In this document: one piece after another, positions 32,366-56,154 of the stretch
Layout of the letters: each line of letters opens with the position of its first letter
How positions within the stretch are numbered: the stretch's first letter is position 1
Made by a program: the position numbers and the translations under genes
Assembly (NCBI GenBank): GCA_017623705.1
Contig: JAGAOQ010000018.1
Location: 949 to 64,948, forward strand
Origin: Clostridia bacterium
GTDB taxonomy: Bacteria > Bacillota > Clostridia > Christensenellales > UBA1242
Length of the DNA stretch: 64,000 bases
Direction of reading: 5' to 3'
Notes under the pieces: generated by a model
What the model was told of the DNA's origin: nothing
Seen by the model: the letters and a program-made list of their open reading frames with translations, nothing else
Database searches by the model: none

Positions 32366-32740
32366 TTATTTTCCGGTAATTTTATTCAATAAGATACCGA
32401 TGACGAAAGCTAAAACTGCACCACCAACAGTCAATGCCAACTTCCACATCAGTGATTTCATCATTTGACGTTTTTGAGATTGACGTTCACGGTCAAAAGC
32501 TGCACCACGCATTGTTAATGAAACTAAGAAATAAATTTTACCTTCTTTATCTTTTTTTTCACATTCAATGTAATCGTCCAAAGCTAAATTGCTCATTACG
32601 ACATCAAGTTGTTTAGCCGTAATTTCAATTTTTGGCATCAAGCACGCAAGCAATTCCTTAGGGGTGAAAATACCTTTATTCTCACCCTTGCACTTTTCAA
32701 AGATGTAGGACATGACGCAACTTTCAGTCTTATTTAGCAT
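32366..32740 (-). CDS. Small protein with a winged-helix-like N-terminal part and a C-terminal TM anchor
   Basis: 124 aa. Overlaps the 3' end of the 1471-aa gene by 11 nt. The final hydrophobic segment is LALTVGGAVLAFVIGILL. No family recognised. Confidence 0.5.
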   Translation of the reverse strand: MLNKTESCVMSYIFEKCKGENKGIFTPKELLACLMPKIEITAKQLDVVMSNLALDDYIECEKKDKEGKIYFLVSLTMRGAAFDRERQSQKRQMMKSLMWKLALTVGGAVLAFVIGILLNKITGK

Positions 32741-35700
32741 CTTTTTCAGCTTCCTCTTTTTTTACTTCATCTTTTTTTTGTTCGTCTTTTTTTGGTTCTT
32801 CGTTTGCTTTTGGAGCTTTGATTTTATTTTTCGCCATACGAGGAGCATCAACGAAACGTGTTGCACGAGCAGTTTTAACGAAGTAGTAAATGACACCTGC
32901 TAACAAACCAACTGACAAGACAATTAAGATAATACCCCAAACGTTGTTCAAGTTAGTTTTCTTGTTTGTAACATCAACGTCGATTGTGAATTCGATTGAA
33001 GCTGAAACACTAGAAGCGGTGTATTTATTTGGCATCGAGATATTAACTTTGTAAGTACCACTGCCTTTGCTCAAATCGAATTTGTACATGAATTTACCAT
33101 CTTCGGTAATTTTGATTGCTGTGGTTTCGTCTTCCGTATCTTTCCAATCGCTGTAATCAATGAAAGCACCACCTTCGAAGCTAACTGTAACTTTAACATT
33201 TTCCATGTAGTAAGCTTCGGCTAATTTTGCTTGGTCGTAACCATCATTGTTATTTTCTGGATTTGGACCTTGGGCAATTAAGTCTTCCATGTCAGCGTTA
33301 CCGGTAAAGTAAACTTTTGACATATCGATTGTTACATAACGATGACCATCAATTTCTTCGATTACAACTTCACTAGCATTGTCGTTAGAAATTTCTTGTT
33401 TACCTTCACCATCGTCATTATCGTAAGTTAAGAAACCTTCGTTCCATGATAATGAACCGTTTTGAACGTTACCAAAAGTAACATTGAAGCTCAAACTGGT
33501 ATCGTTAGTTTTGTAAGCTACGGTATAAACACCGGCTGCCCCACTTTGACTGGTTGTTGCTTTCAAGTAGGTATCTGCATCATAATTATCTTTACAATCC
33601 GCAGCGAATTTTCCTTCAGGACGGAATACATAGTAATCGCCAATTTTGTCAATCACACTTGCTTTATTGGCACTGCCACCAGCATTCTTTTTCTTGTTAG
33701 AAACTAAGTAACTGCTGTTACCGCTCTTTTGAACTGTAATTTCAACATCGTCAGAGCTGGTTGCTTCGCCAACCATGTTTGGCAATGGAATAGCAATCGC
33801 TGGATACATATAACCAGTAATCGCACCATCTTTATAGATTGGTTCTAAGTAATCGAACAATGATGCACTGTCAACAACGAAATCAGTTGCTGCCCCGTAG
33901 TTTGACATAGTGAATTGATTTAAGGTAATGGCAAAAGCTGGTTTCTTGTCAGTACCTGTATCGCCTGTACCAACGTCGTAAGTTGTACCACTGGTACCAC
34001 CGATAGTTGCTTGTTCGCCAGTGCCAGTAAATGTTACGCCTGCGTTCCACAATACTTTTTCAACACCATAGTCTTCACCCATGCGAATGTTGGCATCGGC
34101 ACTGCTGTCGCCGTTGACTTGAACAACATAGTTAACAGTTTTAATTGAATCTTCGCTAGCACCTAAATAGAAGTTATATTGGAAAACGTATTGACCATTT
34201 TGGTTTGGTGCAAATTTATTACCGATAATACAGTTAGCATCGTTAACATTCAAAACAGTAATTGTGTAGTTACCTGATGCGGTATCGGCAATATCGCCAT
34301 TGCTGTCATATAAGAAAAGTTGACGATTTTTTGCAAAATATTTGTCTGAACCTTTGTTAACAATCCAGTTTGGTAAAACCAAAGATTCGCCAATGCTGAT
34401 TGTTTTGTCAACGGTATAATCCGAAGTAGCCATTGGGTTTAAGCTCAATGGAGATACTTCAACGTCGGTATCATTAGAATCAATGGTAATTTCACGAACC
34501 AAAGTATTTGATTTGTTGCTTGCGTGATTTTTGGCAGTTACAACTAAAATGTATTTACCATTGGTTGGTGTAAATGATAAATTTTTCAAAGTGTATAATG
34601 CACGGTTGAAAGAAACTGAACTAACAACTTCATCATCACTATTCACAACGTTAACTGGAACTAAAACGTTATCCGCATTAACTTTGTAAACAGCAACACT
34701 CATTTGACCGTCAACAGGATTTGCACCCCAGTCAGCAGTAATAGTATCAATGATAACTTCTTGACCTGCTTTGTATTGGTTGCCAGTGTTGAATTCCGAC
34801 GTAATATCTGCAACGGCACTGGTTGTATCGACCGTATTGATGTTGAATTCGGCACGTTTCCATGCGTAACCGTATTGAGCTAATTCGTCTTTATCGTTGT
34901 GTGCACCAGTAAATAATTGAGTTTTGAAAACTGCATCAGTTGCTTCCATATCAGGTGTAGTAACATTCATTTTAGCTTTCAAATTTGATTGCATTGCGTT
35001 GAAGTTACGAGCCACAGCATAGATATAGAATTTTGAATAGCCACCATTGGTAATGTCAGCCAATGCTAATTTAGTTTCGGTGTTTTCGTCTTTAACGTCG
35101 TCGTAAGTATACAAGTTTTCCAAATCAACGTTAACACGTAAAGCATTTGAACTTGCATCTAATTTTGACAAGATGTCATAGCTGGTACCTTTGTAACCAA
35201 CGAAATAGTAATCAGTTTGAATTGCATCGTTTGGTGTGTGAGCATCGCTGAAAGTTGGTTTTTTGAATTCAAAGTTGTTGCCTTCCCATAAATAAACATC
35301 ACTAACTTGGAAAACGTTGTTTTCGTCAATAACTGGTGAGTTACTATCGTTGGCACTGGTTTCGCATTCAAATTTGTCGTCAACATAGAAATACATGTAT
35401 TTAGTTTTTTGGTTAGCATACCCTGCACTGTATTTTTCGCCGTCCGCATAAGTTGGTTGTTTTTCTTCAACCGTGATACGTACACGGTATAAACCTGGGT
35501 GATTAACAAGCACAACATTGTTGTTGCCATTGGTACGGCTTACACCTTCGTCAACGAAAGAAATTTGCAAACGTTTTGACATATCGTAAACGAAATATTT
35601 ACTATTGTCGCCGTTGTCTTTTTCAGTACTCCAAACATAGTTATCGCTAACGGTATCACCATTTTGGTCTTGAATTTGGTCGATGTTAACCGCAGTAACT

Positions 35701-37145
35701 TTCATATCAGCAAATGCTGTTGCATTGTCGTGTGGGAAAATTGCTGGTAAAACCAAACCTTGTGTTGGGTTTACGGTAATTTTTTTAGTGGTTGAAGCAT
35801 CTGGTTTTTCGCTCATTGGTAAGCTGGTTGCATAATCATCTAACAAGTCGCTGAAATTTTCGTTCATTTCGTTAACTGCTTCTTCGTTAGCTTTGTCATA
35901 TTGAGCTACCCATGCAAAGTTTGGTTCAGTTGTATCACGGTAGATACGAACACTATCACTCCAATAACGAACATAGGTATTGTTTTCGTCTTGTTCAATA
36001 TTAACACTGTCAGTATCAAATTCTTCGTCTAATTGATAACCGAATAAAGTTGTTGTTTCAAATTGGAAACGATACCAACCCAAACTTTTAACTTTTACGG
36101 TCAAACCGTCAACTTCAAGATATTGGTTAGTTACTTCGCCGTTTTCTTTCACAACCCATTTGCCGTCATTATCTTTTTCAACGGTCAAAGTGTGAATTTT
36201 GTCATTGTTCTTTGCTGACCAATCTTTTGGTTCAGTTGAATATGGAGAACATTGTACTTTGAAAATTTTGGTTTCAGCTTCAACACTGAAAGAAGTTGCA
36301 TCAACTTTGGCACTGTCTGCCGTTGGAGCAGTCAAATTAACTGCTGAATAGTAAGCTAAATTTTTAACACTTGGTGCCGATGGAATATTAGCAAAAGTTA
36401 CTTCGTCAGCAGTAACATCTTTGATTTCGATATTTGATAAAGGTAAAACTGACAATAATTTGCTACCGTCTGCATTATATAAGTGGTAAGCAACTCTTAA
36501 TGTACCAGTTTTGTTTGCTTCCATATCAATTACCAAACCGTTTTGGTCAATCGCAATTTGGTCATTATAGGAACGGTTTTCTAATGATACGTTGGCAGTT
36601 AAACGATAAGCAACTGCACCGTCAACTGTGATGTTAGCGAAGTTACCGCTACCCTTTTCAATCTTTTCAACTTTCACAGCTTTACCGTCAACTTTATAAG
36701 CACTTGGCAATGGTAAAGTTAATTTGTCTAAATTTTTTGGTGCCACAGTCGCAACATTGCTTGGCATTGTCATTGCATAGGCTGCATCGGTTACGGTAAC
36801 AACTTGTGTGGTAAACAACGTGTCGTTAGCATAGAAACGCCATTCGTATTGACCGATTTCTTCGTAAGTGTACTCATCGCCACTAAGATCAATGTAACGA
36901 CCAGCGTGGCACAACTTAACTTCACCACCCGAAATTTCCGGCATGGCAATCTTAGTGCCGATTTCCACACTACGTGTCGGTAAGTCCGTAATCGCATATT
37001 GTGTACCTGCGGAAACACCCATGGTGTTAACACGCAAAGCTGCTGCCACGGAAACTACCGGACTAAACACACCCATAATTGCCACTAACATAACCACAAT
37101 GGCAGGTGCAAATAAATGTTTCAATGATTTTTTCAATTTGTCCAT
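32730..37145 (-). CDS. Giant surface protein (1471 aa): signal peptide, long T/N/D/V-rich beta-type ectodomain, single C-terminal TM, K/E-rich tail
   Basis: N-terminus LFAPAIVVMLVAIMGVFSPVVSVAAA. C-terminal TM WGIILIVLSVGLLAGVIYYFV (about 32877-32939). Tail KKDEQKKDEVKKEEAEKDAK. No LPXTG motif. Confidence 0.8.
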   Translation of the reverse strand: MDKLKKSLKHLFAPAIVVMLVAIMGVFSPVVSVAAALRVNTMGVSAGTQYAITDLPTRSVEIGTKIAMPEISGGEVKLCHAGRYIDLSGDEYTYEEIGQYEWRFYANDTLFTTQVVTVTDAAYAMTMPSNVATVAPKNLDKLTLPLPSAYKVDGKAVKVEKIEKGSGNFANITVDGAVAYRLTANVSLENRSYNDQIAIDQNGLVIDMEANKTGTLRVAYHLYNADGSKLLSVLPLSNIEIKDVTADEVTFANIPSAPSVKNLAYYSAVNLTAPTADSAKVDATSFSVEAETKIFKVQCSPYSTEPKDWSAKNNDKIHTLTVEKDNDGKWVVKENGEVTNQYLEVDGLTVKVKSLGWYRFQFETTTLFGYQLDEEFDTDSVNIEQDENNTYVRYWSDSVRIYRDTTEPNFAWVAQYDKANEEAVNEMNENFSDLLDDYATSLPMSEKPDASTTKKITVNPTQGLVLPAIFPHDNATAFADMKVTAVNIDQIQDQNGDTVSDNYVWSTEKDNGDNSKYFVYDMSKRLQISFVDEGVSRTNGNNNVVLVNHPGLYRVRITVEEKQPTYADGEKYSAGYANQKTKYMYFYVDDKFECETSANDSNSPVIDENNVFQVSDVYLWEGNNFEFKKPTFSDAHTPNDAIQTDYYFVGYKGTSYDILSKLDASSNALRVNVDLENLYTYDDVKDENTETKLALADITNGGYSKFYIYAVARNFNAMQSNLKAKMNVTTPDMEATDAVFKTQLFTGAHNDKDELAQYGYAWKRAEFNINTVDTTSAVADITSEFNTGNQYKAGQEVIIDTITADWGANPVDGQMSVAVYKVNADNVLVPVNVVNSDDEVVSSVSFNRALYTLKNLSFTPTNGKYILVVTAKNHASNKSNTLVREITIDSNDTDVEVSPLSLNPMATSDYTVDKTISIGESLVLPNWIVNKGSDKYFAKNRQLFLYDSNGDIADTASGNYTITVLNVNDANCIIGNKFAPNQNGQYVFQYNFYLGASEDSIKTVNYVVQVNGDSSADANIRMGEDYGVEKVLWNAGVTFTGTGEQATIGGTSGTTYDVGTGDTGTDKKPAFAITLNQFTMSNYGAATDFVVDSASLFDYLEPIYKDGAITGYMYPAIAIPLPNMVGEATSSDDVEITVQKSGNSSYLVSNKKKNAGGSANKASVIDKIGDYYVFRPEGKFAADCKDNYDADTYLKATTSQSGAAGVYTVAYKTNDTSLSFNVTFGNVQNGSLSWNEGFLTYDNDDGEGKQEISNDNASEVVIEEIDGHRYVTIDMSKVYFTGNADMEDLIAQGPNPENNNDGYDQAKLAEAYYMENVKVTVSFEGGAFIDYSDWKDTEDETTAIKITEDGKFMYKFDLSKGSGTYKVNISMPNKYTASSVSASIEFTIDVDVTNKKTNLNNVWGIILIVLSVGLLAGVIYYFVKTARATRFVDAPRMAKNKIKAPKANEEPKKDEQKKDEVKKEEAEKDAK

Positions 37146-47264: not shown

Positions 47265-49886
47265 TTATTCAAAGACTTGACGAATATCATTGCTGGTTTC
47301 GATACGAATCGTCGAACGAGCCACAGGTCCGTACATAAAGAAGCATTGCCCACGTGGTGCAGCGACAATCGTTTCTTGTTCACGTTTATTGATACCACCA
47401 GCATTTTTATACAAAGTTACCAAGTCGGTCATATCGTTAGGAGCTAACGAGAAGATTAAACTATATTGCGAAGCGTTAATAATCGCAGCCGACTTTTTAG
47501 CAATCGCAGGCGAACCCACAAAGTCTTTAATATTTTGGGTAATAACGATTTGCATACCGTCATACTTACGGATACGTTTTGCCATTTGGAACATGAAGTC
47601 CAAAGCAATCGGGCGTTGTTCATCAATGAAAACGTGAGCTTCATCGACAACGACAATAATTTTACGTTTGGTATGGTATTTAGTATTGAAATCACGGTTC
47701 TTAATAACTTCCCCTTCCAAGTACTTAAACACCAACAACATTTGAGCATTAGCAACCAACTCGTTTTTGTTTGACAACAAAGTTAAGAAGTTAAACACGA
47801 AGAAATTTTCTTCGGTACGAATTGTATTTGGACCGTTCCACAAACCAGAGTAACGTCCGCCTTCCGCAAACTTTTCCAAATAGGTCGTCAATACACGGTA
47901 GTTGATACGTGAGAATTCATCTTTGGCTTGTGCGTAACTACGTTTAGCCAATTCATATAATTCGTCGAAAATCGGGAACTGTTCCGGCTTAACTTTGGCG
48001 AAGTCAGTGTATTTGTCAATCCCCTTCATACTATACAGACGGTTAACCAAACTATTCAAAGCTTCCAAAGCATCACTGCGGATACCTTCCATAACAATTT
48101 TGAAGAAACTTTCCAAGAAACGTAAATGCCCTTCAAAGGTATCATCGTATTCTTCGCCCGTGTCATCATCTTCTTCCAACATGTTAGGATAAATATGGAA
48201 CGGGTTAAAGCGACCATGCCCCGCATTACCCACGTCAATCATACCACCATGCAATTTCTTTGCCATGGTTGAATATTCTTTTTCAGGGTCGCAAATATAA
48301 ATTCGAGCATTATCCGCTGCCAAGTTGGTCAAAATTGATTTCGTCGCAAAGGATTTACCACCACCAGATTTACCGATGATAATCATGTTACTGTTAACAC
48401 GAACATCATTACGTTGGAAGAAATCCACAAAAACAGGGTTACTGTTGCTACCCAGCATAATTCCCTTTTCGTCCATTAACAAGTCGGAAACAAATGGGAA
48501 GCAAGCACCTAACGTACTGGTAACCATACCACGTTCAATCGCATCATATTTATCCAACTTAGAAACATTTGCCGATACAAAAGCGTCAATTTGCTTACCC
48601 GAGTTATTGCTAAATTTGAAACCTTCTTCGGTAATCGTATGACGTAATTCGGACGCCGTCTTCGTATCCGTCGTAATGTGAATCTTGACGTTGAACATTT
48701 GTTCGTTACCCGTCTTTAATTGTTGTAACATTTGTTCGATGGTTTGCAATTGGCTTTGCTTTTCCATCTTTTGACTTTCCTTACCTTTGTGTTCTTGCGA
48801 ACGCATTTCGATAATCGCACGGTCAATCAATTTTTCAGATTCAGCTTTTGGCATCTGTGTAAAATTCATGACGGTACGACAATTAGGATAGTTAAAGAAA
48901 GTATACAACCATGCCGGCCCAACATTCATTGGATAATCGGTAATCGTCAATGTAGTCTTATCTTCGCCGTCCATATTGAAACGACTAACACCAAACTTAA
49001 TTTTGCCAGGGTGAGTCCACTCTGTACGTTTGTCAAACGGAGCGTGGTCAAAATCTTTTTCGTTAAAATATTTATTGTAGTTACCACGCAAGAAAACGTA
49101 TAAATCTTTACCGACCACACGACGAGCATGCAATGACGCACCTAACGCCGTAATAACACTGGACGTAGTGTTGTCAATCTCGTCTTTTTTCGACGAATAA
49201 ATTACTAAATAATAACCCGTACGATAAACCTTAGCTTCTTCATTCATGAATTCCAAAGTTTGTCCACGTGAATTGAACACGACTTCACGAGCTTCCAATT
49301 CTTCTTGCGAGAAAGTACCCCGCTCCACGTTACGAGTCAGTTGGTCATACTTTTCAATTTCGTTATCAATGTAATTATCGAAAAGCAAAGGTTTTTCAAA
49401 CGAAATTAAGCTTCCCGAATTGTGCGTACCAATACGACGCAAAGCATTAGCAAAGTTATTCATTAACATGGTTTGAGCTTCGGGTCCCAGCAAACCAAAT
49501 TCAACGGGCATAATTTCGATAACCGAAGCTACATAACTGCCGTAATCAATTAAATTGTCGTTAATGATACCATTATAAGGGACAATGCGTTGCATTTCCA
49601 CATAACCCTTTTCTAAAACTTTGGCGTACTTTTTTGGATAAGCAAGGAAACGGAAATACCAAATGAACGACTCATATTTACGGTCGCCCGCACTATCTTT
49701 CAACATACCGATGATAACTAGGAAAGCAAGAATCCCCCCTAGAATCATCAACGGTAATAAACCCGAAGCAAACAGTAACCCGACCGCACCAGCCCCAAGT
49801 ACCAACCAAATTAAGTCAGTGGACGTTAAGCCCTTGACGAAAATGGTCTTAATCTTGGTTTTCCGCGGGATAAAATAATCACCCAT
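47265..49886 (-). CDS. VirB4/TrsE/ConE-type T4SS ATPase with an N-terminal two-TM (VirB3/PrgI-like) module
   Basis: Walker A MIIIGKSGGGKSFATK (nt 48351-48386), then ICDPEKEY..RFNPFHIY, then Walker B IIVVVDEAHVF (about 47634-47663), then RIRKYDGMQIVITQNIKDF. The N-terminus GLTSTDLIWLVLGAGAVGLLF..LMILGGILAFLVIIG gives 2 TM segments. An AAGGGG SD lies 6 nt before the ATG. Confidence 0.85.
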   Translation of the reverse strand: MGDYFIPRKTKIKTIFVKGLTSTDLIWLVLGAGAVGLLFASGLLPLMILGGILAFLVIIGMLKDSAGDRKYESFIWYFRFLAYPKKYAKVLEKGYVEMQRIVPYNGIINDNLIDYGSYVASVIEIMPVEFGLLGPEAQTMLMNNFANALRRIGTHNSGSLISFEKPLLFDNYIDNEIEKYDQLTRNVERGTFSQEELEAREVVFNSRGQTLEFMNEEAKVYRTGYYLVIYSSKKDEIDNTTSSVITALGASLHARRVVGKDLYVFLRGNYNKYFNEKDFDHAPFDKRTEWTHPGKIKFGVSRFNMDGEDKTTLTITDYPMNVGPAWLYTFFNYPNCRTVMNFTQMPKAESEKLIDRAIIEMRSQEHKGKESQKMEKQSQLQTIEQMLQQLKTGNEQMFNVKIHITTDTKTASELRHTITEEGFKFSNNSGKQIDAFVSANVSKLDKYDAIERGMVTSTLGACFPFVSDLLMDEKGIMLGSNSNPVFVDFFQRNDVRVNSNMIIIGKSGGGKSFATKSILTNLAADNARIYICDPEKEYSTMAKKLHGGMIDVGNAGHGRFNPFHIYPNMLEEDDDTGEEYDDTFEGHLRFLESFFKIVMEGIRSDALEALNSLVNRLYSMKGIDKYTDFAKVKPEQFPIFDELYELAKRSYAQAKDEFSRINYRVLTTYLEKFAEGGRYSGLWNGPNTIRTEENFFVFNFLTLLSNKNELVANAQMLLVFKYLEGEVIKNRDFNTKYHTKRKIIVVVDEAHVFIDEQRPIALDFMFQMAKRIRKYDGMQIVITQNIKDFVGSPAIAKKSAAIINASQYSLIFSLAPNDMTDLVTLYKNAGGINKREQETIVAAPRGQCFFMYGPVARSTIRIETSNDIRQVFE

Positions 49887-49896
49887 GAATTACCCC

Positions 49897-52800
49897 TTAT
49901 TTAGCCCCTGGTAAATTTTTCAATTTTGCCATTTGTTCTTGTAATGAACCTTCTTGTGCTTTGATACCGTTGTTCAATTCATCCTGACGATCACTTAATT
50001 CGTTAGCTTCATTGGCACGGGCAATACCCAAAGTAAAGGTTTTGGCGATACCTAATTGTTCTTGATACGCTAGATCGTTAATGTGTGCATCACGGAATTT
50101 TTCAAATGCTTCAGTCACTTTTTTTACTTTTTCATTTTTCAAACTAGTACCAGAATTAACCGCAATCATCGTATCACGTAAAAGATTTGTAAAATCACTT
50201 TCGCTAGCAACACCTAATTGATTACGTAATTCTTTCCACATAGCACCCGAGAAGTTAGTTTCAATTTGCCCTAAGATTTGGTTAACTTCACTACGTGCTC
50301 TTGCTTCATTATGTGCAGCATCTTCCAATGCGGCATTGAACTTATTAATAATAATTTTTTTCTCGGCCAGTGAAGTTACTTGAGCAAACGCAGTTTCCAT
50401 ACCTAACATTGTATCACCACCCATAGCAGCACTCGTACTGCCCATGTGAGCTGCATCAAGCACACCTAAACCACGAATACCGTTCAAACGATCCGTATCG
50501 CCACGTTGTTCCCAGAAGCGTAATTTATCAATAGTATCCTGATCAACACCAAGAGATTTTGCTCCTTCGTAATCGTGTTGCATAACTTTATCAACAACTT
50601 GTTGTAAAACCAAACCAGCACCAGCATAATCACCTCTGTTGTGCATTTCTTGAATTTTACTATCATTAACAACAACTTGAACCGACATCGCATCCATTTT
50701 CGTACCAATATGGAATTCACGTTGATGTTGATACTCTGTCATCATTGACATAGTATCAATCGCATTCTTTGATTCGACGAATTTCTTTGAAACATCATGA
50801 CGGCGAATATCGTCAGCATAACGAGCTTCAAATTCTTTCAATTTAGCATCTAACATAGCTTTCATGCGTTTCTTTTCAGCATCAATCGCAGCTTGACACG
50901 CAGGATTGTCTAAACCACCTTTACCTTCGTAGCTTTCGATAATTGCATTGATTTTGAAACCAAGCGAGTTTTCGTTGGTTGAAGTATAATCTTCATCATT
51001 AACGTCAGCGACAATTTGTAAGATTGCTTGTTTGTCTTCGGCAGAAACGGAATCACCGATTTTACCTCTAAACATTTCATCACCTTTTTCGTACAATTTT
51101 GCCGCTTCCAATGCCGCTTTTAACGCATGCATATCATGACTATTTTGAACGAAAGCACTGTCAGTAGTTTGTGCCATGAAGATAGCTGCTGTTTTTTGTG
51201 CTTCTTTTTCGTCTACCCCAGCGGCATCAGCAATTTTACCAACAACACTTTCAAACGCAGTACCAGCTTCAACTTTTTCCAAGGTTTTGGCAATGGCTTT
51301 AACTGTTTTTTCATCACCCTCCTTACCCATTGCTTGTGCCATTGAGTATGCCATTGAGTTGATTGCATTTGTTTGTTTTTCGGTTGCCGCAGCAAGTTCA
51401 GTACCAATATTATCTGAACCACTTTGTGCTTTCAAGCGTAATTCGCTTTCCAATTTTTTCAAACGTTGTTTAATCTTTTCATCTTTGAAATCAACGCCGA
51501 GATCAAGATCCAATCCCGATAACCCTTTCAAACCACGAGCCAAGCCGTCAGCCAATTTATTATCACCACCTAACTCGTTATACAGATCTTGCTTTTCGTT
51601 TTCGTTCATGTTGAAAGTTTTAAGTTTTGCATCACGTCTTGCATCTTCAAAGGATTTACCTTCTGCCATGTATTTTTCTGTTAACAACCCTGTCAACTTA
51701 TCGTCCATCGCAAAATTATTTTTCTTTGCTTCAAACTCTTCTCTGATTAATTGTTTTTTTACTTCGTCGGCAATAACTTTATTACCTTTAACGGTATTTT
51801 CGCCCCCCATGGTTAAACCACTAGCCAAAGCTTCACGATATTTTTTCAACTCAGCTTCACGTGTGATTTCTTTATTAGCAAAGTCATTCATTGCTTTTTG
51901 ACGAGCAAGTGGATCACGCCAACGATTAAATTCACCCCACAAGGAATTCTTATCTTGGGTTTTGGTTCCGTCAATACCATATTTAGAACGGATTGCTTCA
52001 CCAATGGTTGACCCCTTACCAAACAATCGTTTACCGATTAATTGAGCACGAGCACCTGCTTTCGTATCCCCAATAGCACTCAAAACATTTTTTGCTCCTT
52101 GAATAGCCCTATTACTTTTAATAACGCCACTAACCGATTTTCTAAAATCAGGATTACTCAACAAATTAGTTTTTTCTGCATTAACACGTGCTGCGTACTG
52201 TTCCTTTGTTTCACCTTTTTGCTTGCCGCCAATATTACGTTTAGCTTGCATTTCAGCAGCTTTTACTTGACGGTCATACATTCTTGATTGACGTTTTGTT
52301 AAACCATCTTTACTACCCTTTGCAATGGCTGCATCAATTTTCTCTTGATTTTCTTTACGCTTTGATTCTTTGGCTTTTGCTTTATCTAGTTTTGCTTGTG
52401 CCCAACTACCAACTTTACCACCTCGTGCAGCCTTCTTTGCTAGGAAATCATCTCGCCAAGCTTTACTATCTTTTTTTAAGGCAGCGACACGGTCGCGTGC
52501 ATTACGTAAACCAGCACCGAAGCCGGCAGCTTTCTTGCCAGCGTTCTTTAAGCCCTTCATAATGCCGTTGTCCATTGACTTTTTAGCATCGCTCCAAACT
52601 GAACCAAGACTCTTGGCACTCATTTGACCCGCACCCAAAACTGTGCAAATTGTGTTGCGGATTTGTGGCAACATAGAAACAAACGCAACCAAACTCAACC
52701 AACTTAATATAGATCCTGACATACCGCCACCAGTAACTTCCTTTACGGCATCTTCAACCGGCTGCATTAAGACAATGAAGATATTAAGCGAAGCAATAAC

Positions 52801-55800
52801 GGCAAATGCACTGATTGCTTCCTTGTAGAACGGAGTAACAAATTGTGAGTTAAATTTAGAACCGTCGTCGAATGGATAGAAAGCGATTGTAACGGGACTC
52901 ATGACGTACAAGACAGCCATGTTAACAGCACGTTGAATTAAACCAAAGGCAAAGTTAAGGTAAACACCTAATGCCGCAATAATAGCAATATAACCGACAG
53001 CAAAGTTAATTTTTATAACATCGTATAATTTACGCACAACATCAGGATCAGAATAAGAGAATGTACCAATATAACTTTGTAAGTTTTTTCCATCTTCACC
53101 AATATTGACTGTATTTTTAGCGGTTAACATTAAATAGCGACGAACATCACCACCAGCAGCACTTGCCATCATGTCATCAATCTCATCAGCGGTAAAATTA
53201 TAAAGCATTTTAGCATTATAACTACCAGTCGGCTTCGCATTGGCGACATTTTTACACCAGTCTTTTAATACTTTTTTATCTTCACTTTGTTGACTTGTAG
53301 CTCGAAGATCACGGAAAGTAATAATATTTTTTTGGAACTCGGTCATCAATTCAGTATCAATTTCAGCATCAGTATCAGCCAACGCTTCAATTTCGCTTAA
53401 AGTACTTAATTTACCAGCGTTAACTAACGCATTGAGATTAGCCGATGATGTACGAACAGCAGATAAATCAACCGACGCAAGACTCAAAGCACTGGTTGTT
53501 GGACCGCTATGTTCAATAAAACCACTGTTAAGACTGTTACCTTTTGGCAATCCGTTTTGATATTCTTGGTAATAACGTGTATCACCCATTGTAACACCAC
53601 GAGAACCCCAATAAGAGCTATCACGGAAACTTTTATTAAATCCACCAGCACGTGTTTGTTTAATAAATGGGTTATTACTTTGGAAAGCCGTGTTAGAAAT
53701 AAAATAGTTCAAACCAACAGATTCCCAACTTTCATTTTGTTCATAATTCATGAATACCAAATCGTCCTGACTCTTATGTTTAATCATTGGCGTATTATCA
53801 TGAGATTCACTTTTTGGATCAATTGGGTTTGCACAATAAAAATCAATATAATCACCAAATACGTCCTTAATACCACCATTAGCATTTGTCATACCACAAT
53901 ATGCTGACCAGTCGATCAGGCGATATGCTTTATTGTCTTCGAAGAACATATTAACAGTAACTTTACCGTTATTATCGTCTTTGTTGAACATTGCGTTACG
54001 AACTTCGCTGGCAGACATCGACAAAGCACGATTTTCCGTCATATTCAATTCGATAATTGGTTGGTAAATTGATGGAACGATACGCAAATCGGCAAAATTA
54101 TTAGTTGGTCTGATTTCACTAAACAATGGACTAACTCCCACATAAGCACTCACTAAATTAGCAAAAGTACTGGTAATTGAAGATTCTAGTGTTTCCCAAG
54201 TACCTGGGAAACCTTTTGACGCCAATAAATCGTCAACTAAGCCAGTTCCAATACCTCCTTCATATCCTGTTTCAAAATCTGGATATTGGGTTAACAATGC
54301 TTCGTATAAATTCAAGTAGTTTCCCAATTTAGATAACATGCTGATCGCATTTTTATTATATAAATTAATTCTAGCATCATAATCCCGCCATTCTTTTTGG
54401 TCGGTAGTAATTTTATTGCTAAGTCCATTTAATTCTTCAACATCTGTTTCATAATTATCCCAAGACATACCGCTTGATTGCTCCATTTGGTTAATAAGAT
54501 CCTTAAAACTATCAGTTAATTGACTCCATAAGGTAATAAAATGGTTAGCAAATTGATACTTTTCAATCGTCAAATCCAAAAATTGTGCTCTATCATTAAC
54601 ACTAACCCAAATATCGCCGTTATGCGTTGACGGTCCAACGACGAAAGTTTCCGCTAATGGATTTCCATTTTCGTCCTTGGGGATAAGTCCAAGATTACCC
54701 ATAAAGGTTTCGTTCATGTTTTGGAAAATTTTCATAAGCAGTGGACCAAGTAATTGTAAATAATTAATGTCAACCGCAAATATATGTGTCGAAGCTGGAA
54801 TCATCGGGATCGCTTCAACTGCTTTTTGTGTTAAATTGGTATAAACTACGTTTGTTAAAATTGTCGACAAAAGACCAAGGAAAAGTTCTGGCTTAAAGGT
54901 GTCCAAAGAGAAGCTTGCCGACACTTCATCACCTTGTAAACCAACTTTTCCTTCAAAAGTAAATCCAAATTTTTTGGCACTATCTTCCAAAGATTTCTTA
55001 ACGGGTTCTCCCTTACTCTTGTAAGCAACGAAAGTAGTACCCATTGGGATCTTAGTACCAGACCCCATAACAGTCGTATCAATATCATGTGAAATATACT
55101 TAACTTGATCTAACGCATAAAAATAATCCACAATATCAACAGGCGACCACGCCAAATTGATACTTGGTTGAACATTAGTAGTAAACGCACTGAGAATATC
55201 ACTACGGAAACCGAATGAACCAGATACTTCACCATTTTCAATAAAATCATCTACATCTGTAATATCACCACTTGTTTGTTCAAACTCTATATAGTCTTCA
55301 AAGTCTTTTTTAGTTTCATCACCGAATTCAGCCCAACTATCGTTCCATCTTTCACCCCAACTACTATCATCGCTTTCTTCATCGGCTAAGATTTGTGCCC
55401 ATTGCGACAAAGGAGTAATTGAACCATCAGCATTAACTACGCCGTAATGTGATGATGGAAACAATTCATAATATTTATCACGCCATTCAGCAGCCGTTGT
55501 TGGCTTATTTTTATCCGTCATTTCAATCAAAACATATTTACCATCATCGGTATGATCACCAATCAAACGATAAATGTGCTGATTTCGCATATCTGCACCA
55601 AAAGCGTCTTCCTCTGTAACCAAACCTATTCGCTTACGGTTTGCGTCATAAGCCATTGCCTTAAAGACTGAACCCGCAATACTAGCTGTATTACCACTGC
55701 CAGTTGCAGCGTCCAACGCTCTGAACATGACTTGCGTCGTCTTCAAACCAACTGATACTGCTGCACTAACAAAAAAGAACATTAACAAACCTTTGAAAGT

Positions 55801-56154
55801 ACGGATAACAATTTTATACGGATTGCCACCATCTTTTTCTTTGTAATGTTCTTGAATAATTTTAATAATGGTAAAGAAAATAATTAGTGCCGTCGATAAA
55901 CCAATCAAGTTTTTGAAAATTGCATCAACGCTTTTATTCTGAATAATCAAGGTTATCATATCTTTACCCGATTCACCGATACCAGCCAAATTGCGGAAAA
56001 TACTTTCAACACCACTAACAATCCATGCCAACAATCGCCAAATCATATAAAGGAAACTTGGGAGCATTTCCAATACATTATCGATGATCATATAGATAAA
56101 GTTACCCAAACCTTCTACGAAAACATTTTCAAGCAACAGATTTCCCCAATTCAT
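49897..56154 (-). CDS. Giant polytopic membrane protein (2085 aa); a VirB6/ConG-like role is proposed only from topology and synteny
   Basis: Uninterrupted 6.26-kb ORF. Hydrophobic clusters lie at aa 15-145 and aa 1048-1175, with about 900 aa between them. The C-terminal 910 aa or so are K/A/E-rich. Lies 10 nt upstream of the VirB4-like gene. Confidence 0.8.
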   Translation of the reverse strand: MNWGNLLLENVFVEGLGNFIYMIIDNVLEMLPSFLYMIWRLLAWIVSGVESIFRNLAGIGESGKDMITLIIQNKSVDAIFKNLIGLSTALIIFFTIIKIIQEHYKEKDGGNPYKIVIRTFKGLLMFFFVSAAVSVGLKTTQVMFRALDAATGSGNTASIAGSVFKAMAYDANRKRIGLVTEEDAFGADMRNQHIYRLIGDHTDDGKYVLIEMTDKNKPTTAAEWRDKYYELFPSSHYGVVNADGSITPLSQWAQILADEESDDSSWGERWNDSWAEFGDETKKDFEDYIEFEQTSGDITDVDDFIENGEVSGSFGFRSDILSAFTTNVQPSINLAWSPVDIVDYFYALDQVKYISHDIDTTVMGSGTKIPMGTTFVAYKSKGEPVKKSLEDSAKKFGFTFEGKVGLQGDEVSASFSLDTFKPELFLGLLSTILTNVVYTNLTQKAVEAIPMIPASTHIFAVDINYLQLLGPLLMKIFQNMNETFMGNLGLIPKDENGNPLAETFVVGPSTHNGDIWVSVNDRAQFLDLTIEKYQFANHFITLWSQLTDSFKDLINQMEQSSGMSWDNYETDVEELNGLSNKITTDQKEWRDYDARINLYNKNAISMLSKLGNYLNLYEALLTQYPDFETGYEGGIGTGLVDDLLASKGFPGTWETLESSITSTFANLVSAYVGVSPLFSEIRPTNNFADLRIVPSIYQPIIELNMTENRALSMSASEVRNAMFNKDDNNGKVTVNMFFEDNKAYRLIDWSAYCGMTNANGGIKDVFGDYIDFYCANPIDPKSESHDNTPMIKHKSQDDLVFMNYEQNESWESVGLNYFISNTAFQSNNPFIKQTRAGGFNKSFRDSSYWGSRGVTMGDTRYYQEYQNGLPKGNSLNSGFIEHSGPTTSALSLASVDLSAVRTSSANLNALVNAGKLSTLSEIEALADTDAEIDTELMTEFQKNIITFRDLRATSQQSEDKKVLKDWCKNVANAKPTGSYNAKMLYNFTADEIDDMMASAAGGDVRRYLMLTAKNTVNIGEDGKNLQSYIGTFSYSDPDVVRKLYDVIKINFAVGYIAIIAALGVYLNFAFGLIQRAVNMAVLYVMSPVTIAFYPFDDGSKFNSQFVTPFYKEAISAFAVIASLNIFIVLMQPVEDAVKEVTGGGMSGSILSWLSLVAFVSMLPQIRNTICTVLGAGQMSAKSLGSVWSDAKKSMDNGIMKGLKNAGKKAAGFGAGLRNARDRVAALKKDSKAWRDDFLAKKAARGGKVGSWAQAKLDKAKAKESKRKENQEKIDAAIAKGSKDGLTKRQSRMYDRQVKAAEMQAKRNIGGKQKGETKEQYAARVNAEKTNLLSNPDFRKSVSGVIKSNRAIQGAKNVLSAIGDTKAGARAQLIGKRLFGKGSTIGEAIRSKYGIDGTKTQDKNSLWGEFNRWRDPLARQKAMNDFANKEITREAELKKYREALASGLTMGGENTVKGNKVIADEVKKQLIREEFEAKKNNFAMDDKLTGLLTEKYMAEGKSFEDARRDAKLKTFNMNENEKQDLYNELGGDNKLADGLARGLKGLSGLDLDLGVDFKDEKIKQRLKKLESELRLKAQSGSDNIGTELAAATEKQTNAINSMAYSMAQAMGKEGDEKTVKAIAKTLEKVEAGTAFESVVGKIADAAGVDEKEAQKTAAIFMAQTTDSAFVQNSHDMHALKAALEAAKLYEKGDEMFRGKIGDSVSAEDKQAILQIVADVNDEDYTSTNENSLGFKINAIIESYEGKGGLDNPACQAAIDAEKKRMKAMLDAKLKEFEARYADDIRRHDVSKKFVESKNAIDTMSMMTEYQHQREFHIGTKMDAMSVQVVVNDSKIQEMHNRGDYAGAGLVLQQVVDKVMQHDYEGAKSLGVDQDTIDKLRFWEQRGDTDRLNGIRGLGVLDAAHMGSTSAAMGGDTMLGMETAFAQVTSLAEKKIIINKFNAALEDAAHNEARARSEVNQILGQIETNFSGAMWKELRNQLGVASESDFTNLLRDTMIAVNSGTSLKNEKVKKVTEAFEKFRDAHINDLAYQEQLGIAKTFTLGIARANEANELSDRQDELNNGIKAQEGSLQEQMAKLKNLPGAK

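Follow-up and report, generated by a model that had tools for sequence, protein, structure and literature searches.

The giant protein described here, 2085 amino acids (aa) long, is encoded on the minus strand at positions 49897..56154 of a 64,000-nucleotide (nt) stretch of contig JAGAOQ010000018.1 from a Clostridia bacterium (GenBank assembly GCA_017623705.1); this whole stretch is called the window below. Based upon its membrane core and its neighbouring gene, the protein is likely to be a polytopic membrane component, of the 'extended VirB6-like' kind, in a type IV secretion system (T4SS). Its two clusters of transmembrane (TM) segments are separated by a large central insert and followed by a long C-terminal tail. 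An earlier note on this DNA had drawn attention to the architecture of the protein. The main feature to emerge beyond that note is the extreme modular variation of the giant within one species.

Modular variation within one species

Comparison of the window with the same locus in another assembly (L002) gives 96-99.6% nt identity on both sides of the giant gene, but 51-74% over most of the gene itself, with values of 85-89% in the two TM clusters. Identity falls within the 250-nt windows of the comparison that hold the two gene borders. These two loci and those of three further fetched strains make up a set of five conspecific strains, for which GlnRS, YchF and VirB4 served as flanks. Protein identity is 98-100% for the flanks (97% over one partial VirB4) versus 56-87% for the giant, and VirB4 is 98-99% identical among strains whose giants differ to this extent. 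The same contrast is evident in substitution rates. For the flanks, synonymous divergence (dS) is 0.04-0.13, non-synonymous divergence (dN) is at most 0.016 and dN/dS is 0.01-0.23, whereas the giant has a dS of 0.19-1.06, a dN of 0.09-0.36 and a dN/dS of 0.32-0.53. Among conspecifics the insert retains 59-90% aa identity and the tail 41-97%, with sharing in the tail being block-wise, and TM cluster 2 is under purifying selection (omega 0.1-0.3). In the nearest species the giant is ~47% identical, versus 67-69% for two bona fide giant surface proteins. The two big domains are thus the fastest-evolving, recombining part of an otherwise near-identical region, which singles them out as the probable point of contact between the machine and its surroundings.

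Strains that share one segment of the protein commonly differ in the next. For example, the window allele and that of L024 have a common tail (91-99% nt identity from aa ~1141) and differing inserts (55-88%), so that the switch from divergent to shared sequence lies in TM cluster 2. Likewise, L002 and L026 have aa 1441-2085 in common and differ over aa 1201-1440, while L002 and L025 show the reverse, and a block at aa 601-660 also switches partners. Insert and tail segments therefore recombine independently, with one breakpoint at the conserved TM cluster 2. In separate trees of the insert, the proximal tail and the distal tail, the five conspecific alleles are monophyletic each time and their internal topologies are incongruent, which argues that the alleles arose within the species lineage and recombine together. 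Trans-species polymorphism was also considered, and is rejected by the monophyly of the conspecific alleles. Our best reading is that the population maintains old allele classes, which homologous recombination reshuffles at crossover points in the conserved TM cluster 2 and, presumably, in the conserved flanks.

Other sources of variation were sought in the sequence. There are no tandem repeats in the giant, and the assembled source genome holds no silent donor cassettes or paralogues. Promoter- and terminator-like sites are no more frequent than in shuffled sequence. We infer diversifying or balancing selection on the giant, a point that is weighed below.

A split VirB6-like core paired with VirB4

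The gene is a single ATG-started open reading frame (ORF) with no internal stops, and lies in synteny between YchF and VirB4 in the loci that extend to both sides of it. We found 33 homologues, the full-length ones being 2025-2402 aa long with identities as low as 31% at ~100% coverage. Full-length homologues are present in more than 30 independent assemblies, and in 12 other fetched loci the ORF is likewise intact, identically laid out and 2002-2402 aa long. Because intact ORFs of one layout recur in independent assemblies, this ORF is no fusion artefact; the earlier note had raised that possibility and had called for the lengths of homologues to be recorded. Its four-part layout (TM cluster, large outer region, TM cluster, tail) is confirmed, and the arithmetic of all its nt and aa boundaries is correct.

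TM segments were assigned from Kyte-Doolittle hydropathy of the protein together with a 27-sequence family alignment. TM cluster 1 (aa 31-150; 55705..56064, minus strand) has conserved hydrophobic helices at aa ~31-53, 79-100 and 118-140, carries an invariant K-rich loop, QEHYKEKDGGNPYK, and is 63-81% identical to the reference in the family alignment. Three conserved helices thus stand within the hydrophobic cluster that had been placed at aa 15-145, while a segment at aa 6-24 is weakly hydrophobic and not conserved. TM cluster 2 (aa 1041-1175; 52630..53034, minus strand) has hydrophobic segments at aa ~1052-1074, 1077-1095, 1110-1131 and 1145-1166 and is the best-conserved part of the protein, aa 1051-1100 being 84% identical to the reference. 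Overall there are 6-7 conserved hydrophobic segments, and AlphaFold2 (AF2) predicts helices at the same places. By hydropathy of both protein and family alignment, no hydrophobic segment lies beyond aa 1166.

Scanned as a whole, the protein matches the NCBIfam models NF045848 (MMCAP2_0566; E = 3.4e-22, 79.1 bits, cut-off 90) and NF045889 (Mbov_0396; E = 6.2e-13, 48.9 bits, cut-off 70) and, weakly, the Pfam model PF19597 (TrbL_4; E = 4.3e-4, 20.2 bits, cut-off 27). The match is not that of a full-model member of the Mbov_0396/MMCAP2_0566 family, as it falls in two pieces ~860 residues apart. When the halves, the insert and the tail were scanned separately against Pfam and NCBIfam models, aa 34-159 aligned to positions 9-138 of the 322-position MMCAP2_0566 model (E = 1.1e-6) and aa 1023-1175 to positions 162-314 (E = 1.7e-13). 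The latter segment also matches Mbov_0396 (E = 7e-10) and, weakly, pLS20_p028 (E = 6e-5), and the TrbL_4 match falls on cluster 2 as well. On this profile evidence the two TM clusters are the predicted halves of one VirB6-like core of ~320 aa, of the type found in mycoplasma integrative and conjugative elements (ICEs). The split alignment thus points to an ordinary VirB6-like core that has been interrupted by an insertion of ~870 aa and extended by 910 aa, which brings the giant to ~6.5 times the length of the 322-position model. A 708-aa homologue from the same bacterial family passes both NCBIfam cut-offs (118.9 vs 90 and 103 vs 70 bits).

The gene for a partner VirB4 ATPase (873 aa; 47265..49886, minus strand) starts 10 nt downstream of the giant, and this pairing is kept in every related locus that reaches past the end of the giant gene. 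VirB4 scores 578.7 bits against NF045975 (the Mbov_0397 family; cut-off 590) and contains a TraG P-loop domain, and two TM helices at its N terminus represent a VirB3-like fusion. With at least five TM helices, an adjacent VirB4 and large hydrophilic domains both centrally and at the C terminus, of which one suffices in the definition of the subtype (PMC12857230), the giant has several features of extended VirB6 proteins. The VirB6-like identity that the earlier note had assigned to the TM clusters is thus upheld by the split MMCAP2_0566 match and by the neighbouring VirB4.

VirB6-like proteins across the bacterial family show stepwise growth. In most genera they are 460-1000 aa long, with ~10-135 aa between the clusters; in three sister genera they reach 1483-1665 aa, with ~390-600 aa between the clusters; and in the source genus they measure 2003-2402 aa. 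Since smaller relatives have no insert or a much shorter one, the insert and the tail are additions to the core. The giant is ~2.5 times the usual size for the family, in agreement with the ratio that had been estimated from known Gram-positive proteins.

The insert and the tail

The central insert (aa 151-1040; 53035..55704, minus strand) is the first hypervariable module. As the earlier note had described it, the middle region (aa 146-1047) is polar and contains an acidic stretch. The region is rich in N/S/T/Y/W and has a net charge of -54, and the acidic stretch, ADEESDDSSWGERW..., proves to lie within a gappy linker (aa ~251-335; 55150..55404, minus strand). The least conserved part of the protein is found here (aa 251-300; identity 0.12 and gap fraction 0.35 in the family alignment), and the predicted local distance difference test score (pLDDT) of the AF2 model is below 50 across aa 259-335. 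AF2 models were built on shallow alignments of 13 sequences. The model of aa 1-1200 is mediocre (pLDDT 58.6), with low pLDDT in the membrane parts, and shows several moderately confident alpha/beta sub-domains in the insert together with long helices at aa 539-623 and 653-679.

The 910-aa tail (49900..52629, minus strand) comprises modules 2 and 3 (aa ~1200-1440 and ~1441-2085). Its composition (K 11.5%, A 12.6%, E 7.7%) and its lack of hydrophobic segments are as previously read. The tail had also been predicted to be helical or disordered. The AF2 model favors the former: it contains helices only, the longest of ~69 residues, and has a mean pLDDT of 75.8, with values of at least 70 for 671 of its 918 residues. 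The tail is therefore predicted to form folded helical bundles and not to be disordered.

Neither domain resembles a characterized protein in the searches that we made. A Foldseek comparison of both AF2 models with the PDB, and of the tail with viral structures, yielded no match below E = 0.05; the matches obtained were generic helical and tape-measure proteins with TM-scores of at most 0.11. Profile searches of insert and tail against PDB sequences, a PHROGs search, and Pfam and NCBIfam scans of the isolated insert and the isolated tail were all without a match. A profile of the tail, run against 1.84 billion representative proteins, recovered just 58 relatives; all full-length ones belong to the giant family and the shorter ones look like C-terminal fragments. 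Word-indexed searches for homologues, starting from the isolated insert or from the lipoprotein domain described below, added almost nothing new. A phage receptor of the YueB/EsaA/PIP type was considered and rejected: the sole match is an EsaA fragment (7jqe) at E = 1.5 and probability 0.02, the ectodomain has no Pfam or NCBIfam match, and the resemblance is limited to the layout of TM segment, ectodomain and TM cluster.

Base composition follows the domain boundaries. The gene has a GC content of 37.7%, below that of both the window (41.0%) and the genome (39.0%), so that the AT-richness noticed by eye is real and modest. GC content at third codon positions (GC3) is lowest in the two big domains (27-28% over 49900-52629 and 53035-55704), ~10 points below the TM clusters (37%), and is 35.5-46% in the flanking genes.

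A relative of part of the insert occurs in a different setting. Two other species of the genus encode a lipoprotein of 845-849 aa (L032:1092-3641 in G199:C1 and L034:1521-4058 in G240:C69) that has a lipobox, four Flg_new repeats and a region of BspA-type leucine-rich repeats (LRR_5). An insert sub-domain at aa ~543-865 (53560..54528, minus strand) is common to this protein, with 29% identity to residues 551-835 of the G199 lipoprotein (BLASTP, E = 3e-27). Against other giant alleles the ~285-aa lipoprotein C terminus gives E values down to 1e-40 and ~27-37% identity overall. Capture of the resident allele by the lipoprotein gene is rejected, as identity is 32% to the resident allele and up to 37% to others. 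The G199 lipoprotein gene adjoins genes for an HUH Rep and a large serine recombinase, which together form a small integrated element. The lipoprotein may be a mimic, a docking factor or an exclusion factor for the T4SS.

Membrane topology

Topology was approached through hydropathy, charge bias, composition and homology. A composition score was trained on the source genome's own proteins, for which the cytoplasmic 95th percentile is -0.004 and the signal-anchored median is +0.023. On this scale the insert is exo-like (+0.027, above the cytoplasmic 95th percentile) and the tail is cytoplasm-like (-0.043). Because of this exo-like composition, and because a homologous domain occurs in a surface lipoprotein, the insert is probably located outside the cell. 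This agrees with the extracellular placement in the 'adhesin-like ectodomain' of the earlier note; the adhesin part of that description fared less well, as no adhesin fold was found for the insert with Foldseek.

In the 30 residues that follow the last TM segment, four K/R stand against a single acidic residue, and a strongly basic stretch of ~150 residues comes next. By the positive-inside rule, this basic flank marks the start of the tail as cytoplasmic, and we consider it probable that the tail is inside the cell at synthesis. The proposed 'cytoplasmic scaffold' is in this way weakly favored by charge and composition, and it is hard to reconcile with the variability of the tail, which exceeds that of any other part. 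Much depends on the segment at aa 1077-1095, which is the most conserved in the protein and is preceded by an invariant Q1074-R1075. Were it a full membrane pass, insert and tail would lie on the same side. Alternatively, if it is re-entrant or lies within one long helix, as in the AF2 model, the N terminus would be inside, the insert outside and the tail inside, and all charges would fit.

A chromosomal secretion system in reduced genomes

The source genome measures 635 kb at 74% completeness, with an estimated full size of ~0.86 Mb, and the genomes of its taxonomic family, all gut Clostridia from ruminant, termite and other samples, are 0.7-1.4 Mb. The giant and VirB4 lie within a co-directional housekeeping run, with genes for HflX, GlnRS, a SLOG protein, a Zn peptidase and YchF upstream of the giant and a Ca-ATPase gene downstream of the pair. 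This order (HflX, GlnRS, SLOG protein, sometimes the peptidase, YchF, giant, VirB4, Ca-ATPase) recurs, whole or in part, across the loci of the genus. A termite-gut relative carries a 1520-aa version with VirB4 between glycolysis and V-ATPase genes. Neither integrase or transposase genes nor repeats were found near the giant-VirB4 pair; together with the housekeeping synteny conserved across species and genera, this places the pair outside any ICE.

A VirB6-like homologue is present in 184 of 201 genomes of the family (55 of 58 genera), and VirD4 in 79 of 81 genomes (all 58 genera), often within a few kb of the VirB6-like gene. Of 19 genomes of the genus, 18 contain a match over cut-off to the pilin-like family NF045849 (Mbov_0395), while the incomplete source genome gives a weak one. 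A 244-aa ORF of the source genome (C18:18117-18299) has a weak match to the Mbov_0395 pilin-like family as well (24.5 bits), and similar weak matches are found in ORFs of ~250-280 aa in most other genomes of the genus; this ORF may encode a second protein of the T4SS with a pilin-like domain. Relaxases of the families PF03432 and PF02486 score over cut-off in none of the 19 genus genomes, the MOBV, MOBF, MOBH and MOBC families being outside the scope of that search. Of the parts expected in a self-transmissible system of MPF_FATA type, VirB4 and the coupling protein VirD4 are therefore present, and no relaxase of the two families was found. The absence of relaxases from the two families tested makes classical self-transmissible conjugation unlikely.

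The T4SS genes are dispersed over at least three chromosomal loci, the third being that of the VirB2-like pilin gene in the genus. VirD4 (664 aa) is located on another contig (C21:33983-43911, corresponding to L023:3983-13911), where it is directly followed by a 2620-aa beta-rich protein with an N-terminal signal or anchor and a C-terminal TM anchor, and where PNP and Ppx/GppA flank the locus. A less rearranged genus (L027, G194:C4) has a cluster encoding a pilin-like protein, VirB6-like proteins of 724 and 708 aa, VirB4 and a 1000-aa protein, and at the end of this cluster a divergently transcribed VirD4 is followed by a giant gene. The system is thus likely to reside on a mobile element no longer, having become a vertically inherited core system of this family of reduced-genome gut Clostridia.

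Several smaller observations concern the same loci. The pairing of VirD4 with a giant gene in L027 repeats the arrangement seen in the source genome. In L027, the 1000-aa protein encoded downstream of VirB4 has no family match and the 724-aa VirB6-like paralogue is recognized by no curated model (L027:2380-5382 and L027:10554-12728, respectively). Elsewhere in the source genome there is a small HUH Rep element.

Relation to known systems

The curated families that score best for both the giant's core and the adjacent VirB4 are those of mycoplasma ICEs. In these elements (M. agalactiae/M. bovis) Mbov_0395 is the pilin-like protein, the TM protein Mbov_0396/MMCAP2_0566 is the VirB6-like protein of CDS16 type, the VirB4 protein Mbov_0397 is CDS17 and VirD4 is CDS5. 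The gene order is also the same, with the VirB6-like gene followed by VirB4, and the less rearranged genus keeps the succession of pilin-like, VirB6-like and VirB4 genes. Both are minimal monoderm systems (PMC12857230). However, the Clostridia pair is off any mobile element, with its T4SS genes dispersed over chromosomal loci, and the core of the giant is split by ~870 aa, extended by 910 aa, below the family cut-offs in score, and hypervariable within a species.

A TrbL/VirB6 core with very large hydrophilic domains is also found in the extended VirB6 proteins of Rickettsiales (the RvhB6 paralogues, and VirB6-3 and VirB6-4 of Anaplasma and Ehrlichia) and in TraG of F and SXT. Rickettsiales resemble the present lineage further in having reduced genomes and split T4SS loci and in that VirB6 is the most strain-variable channel subunit (PMC3556328, PMC7648143, PMC12857230). 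Those systems, however, are diderm P-type or F-type machines, and their variation lies mainly in the copy number of C-terminal tandem repeats, as in the strain-variable VirB6 paralogues of Anaplasma (PMC3556328), whereas the giant is free of repeats and varies by allelic replacement of whole modules. Moreover, the giant has a large central insert in addition, and we found no sequence similarity outside the core.

Patescibacteria such as Southlakia epibionticum and its relatives possess a monoderm-type T4SS with VirB3, VirB4, VirB6, VirD4 and pilin-like genes, and as in the Clostridia family this system is chromosomal and lineage-wide in genomes of ~1 Mb (PMC12102498, PMC12857230). There the T4SS is essential for growth on the host cell (PMC12102498, PMC12857230). 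In contrast, the source lineage belongs to the Clostridia and its VirB4 is nearest to the mycoplasma-ICE type, and no giant hypervariable VirB6 is described in the two papers on Patescibacteria cited here (PMC12102498, PMC12857230). Among Gram-positive conjugation proteins, ConG (ICEBs1), TcpH (pCW3), PrgH (pCF10) and pLS20 p028 share the polytopic core, the C-terminal hydrophilic domain and the VirB4 neighbour, and their sizes of 700-950 aa fall in the range of most members in the Clostridia family. The giant differs from these in being 2.5 times larger, in belonging to the chromosomal core, in its extreme allelic diversity and in the lack of a relaxase from the two families tested.

Oversized VirB6 proteins that carry hydrophilic domains in the centre, at the C terminus or in both places already have a class name, 'extended VirB6' (PMC12857230, PMC7648143), and therefore the size of the giant alone is not new. 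What is new is a monoderm extended VirB6 with both a central insert and a C-terminal domain, the core chromosomal status of a mycoplasma-ICE-type machine in a family of reduced-genome Clostridia, and the shuffling of whole-module alleles within one species; we found no published description of such a system. Core chromosomal T4SSs in monoderms with genomes of ~1 Mb have hitherto been described mainly for Patescibacteria, so that this Clostridia family represents a second, unrelated lineage. According to a recent review, what such additional domains do in the extended VirB6 class is 'not yet known' (PMC12857230), and the swappable alleles of insert and tail make that question testable by comparison of strains. 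The system may also reveal how uncultured gut bacteria with tiny genomes depend on other cells.

Proposed function and alternative explanations

A possible mechanism is as follows. The core would form a membrane channel or translocon with VirB3 and VirB4, as VirB6 does elsewhere, and the insert would project outward through the wall to contact another cell or a surface. The tail, made on the cytoplasmic side, would recruit or bind variable partners there; alternatively, it might be threaded or released toward a target cell, as has been suggested for extended VirB6 proteins (PMC3556328, PMC7648143). Allelic diversity would be kept by diversifying or balancing (frequency-dependent) selection, and we propose that it is maintained because the domains face a variable partner or enemy. 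Candidate pressures are the surface of a partner cell, phage, host immunity or an exclusion factor, and candidate roles are the exchange of DNA or protein with conspecifics or an interaction with a host bacterium. The best analogy would be cell-contact transfer or uptake, as proposed for the T4SS of Patescibacteria.

Several points weigh against this interpretation of the giant as a secretion subunit with an outer insert, an inner tail and selected diversity. The protein scores below the cut-off of every curated family that it matches, and a role in secretion is suggested by homology and gene neighbourhood. The absence of relaxases covers two families, and the source genome is 74% complete. 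In a sliding-window analysis of pN/pS no window is robustly above 1; thus positive selection is not demonstrated, and what is demonstrated are old, recombining alleles under relaxed constraint. The number of passes in TM cluster 2 also differs between methods. Hydropathy suggests four, in line with the four or more TM helices that the earlier note had placed at aa 1048-1175, whereas AF2, at low pLDDT, gives three long helices, and four true passes would put either the insert or the tail on the other side of the membrane. Finally, surface-directed selection can hardly explain why a cytoplasmic tail should be the most variable part.

This last difficulty would disappear if both big domains were exposed, either through a seven-pass topology or because the tail is threaded, cleaved or delivered via the T4SS onto or into a partner cell, so that the hypervariability of the tail would reflect direct contact with the target. 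Hydropathy of the family does show four hydrophobic segments in cluster 2, and divergence is greatest in the tail (41-67% aa identity between allele classes), which reassorts independently and is a very long all-helical protein. There are precedents in Anaplasma, where C-terminal extensions of VirB6-3 and VirB6-4 are trypsin-accessible on intact cells, and it has been proposed that extended VirB6 proteins are threaded or released into the cell that they target (PMC7648143, PMC3556328). However, the flank after the last TM segment is basic and of cytoplasmic type, the tail has the composition of the source genome's cytoplasmic proteins, it offers no testable cleavage site or secretion signal, and AF2 models cluster 2 as three long helices. 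We regard exposure of both domains as possible but doubtful. Less likely still is that the variable domains determine self/non-self recognition or mating compatibility, with the lipoprotein as a mimic or exclusion factor; the allele would then govern which cells can be docked with and which shut the machine out. VirB6-type proteins are known targets of exclusion proteins, as in TraG-Eex of SXT/R391 and ConG-YddJ of ICEBs1, and this counts in favor of such a role. Old, recombining alleles that are monophyletic in the species, with a dS far above that of the rest of the locus, are also what frequency-dependent recognition loci display, and in one species a lipoprotein with homology to aa 543-865 is encoded beside Rep and a serine recombinase. 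The C-terminal domains of TraG and TraG_SXT have been mentioned in connection with exclusion (PMC7648143). Nevertheless, no exclusion gene adjoins the giant, the lipoprotein domain resembles foreign alleles (up to 37%) at least as much as the resident one (32%), and the copy of the element in the source genome bears an unrelated 339-aa lipoprotein. Moreover, we know of no DNA transfer shown for this lineage. A broader version, to which we give a similarly low probability, would make the giant the recognition or compatibility locus of a domesticated T4SS: insert and delivered tail would touch the partner, ancient alleles would be under frequency-dependent selection exerted by a varying partner surface, by exclusion factors or by defences of the partner, the machine's own DNA exchange might shuffle the modules, and the lipoprotein mimic would dock to or block the system.

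Two further explanations were weighed. The diversity might stem from a locally raised mutation rate, that is, from targeted hypermutation in place of old alleles. It is true that dS and dN are both raised in the giant, that GC3 is ~10 points lower in the variable modules, as a load of AT-biased mutations would produce, and that conspecific alleles are monophyletic. However, between the window and a near-clonal strain of different sample origin there is one difference in the 6258 nt of the giant and one in 12000 nt of flanks, where a tenfold rate predicts ~5 differences in the giant. In addition, blocks of 91-100% identity alternate with blocks of 45-65% identity between the same two strains, a pattern that speaks for recombination and not mutation, and we found no repeats, retroelement-type template or donor cassettes. 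Hypermutation is therefore very unlikely. Even less credence is due to the idea that the pair is the decaying remnant of an ICE, or that the ORF was fused by an assembly or frameshift error. The nearest curated families are indeed mycoplasma ICE proteins, and the genes of the T4SS sit at three or more separate loci. These facts are outweighed by the intact ORFs of the same layout in more than 30 independent assemblies, by the conserved TM core with purifying selection in cluster 2 (omega 0.1-0.3), by T4SS genes that are near-universal across 55-58 genera, and by housekeeping flanks in conserved order with no integrase or repeats. Homologue intactness, purifying selection, near-universality and synteny effectively refute remnant and artefact alike.

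A small, apparently mobile element and other giant proteins

The integrated element that adjoins the lipoprotein gene in G199 also has a copy in the source genome (C6:30831-33374, corresponding to L036:6902-9386). Although the two genomes represent different species, Rep (88-96% aa identity) and the serine recombinase (97% aa identity) are near-identical between them. This identity is well above the 92-95% of the housekeeping proteins compared with that species, and thus the element appears to be mobile between species. In the source genome its cargo consists of the unrelated 339-aa lipoprotein and restriction-modification-like genes.

Other giant proteins are encoded in this small genome. The window contains, at 32730-37145 on the minus strand, a gene for a surface protein of 1471 aa that has a signal peptide and is anchored at its C terminus. 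This protein evolves fast as well, being 41-67% identical across the genus versus ~80-95% for housekeeping proteins, yet more slowly than the giant VirB6-like protein. A 3153-aa signal-anchored giant is found on contig C12 (ORF at index 17714). Together, the four giants of 3153, 2620, 2085 and 1471 aa total ~28 kb, or ~3% of the estimated ~0.86 Mb genome.

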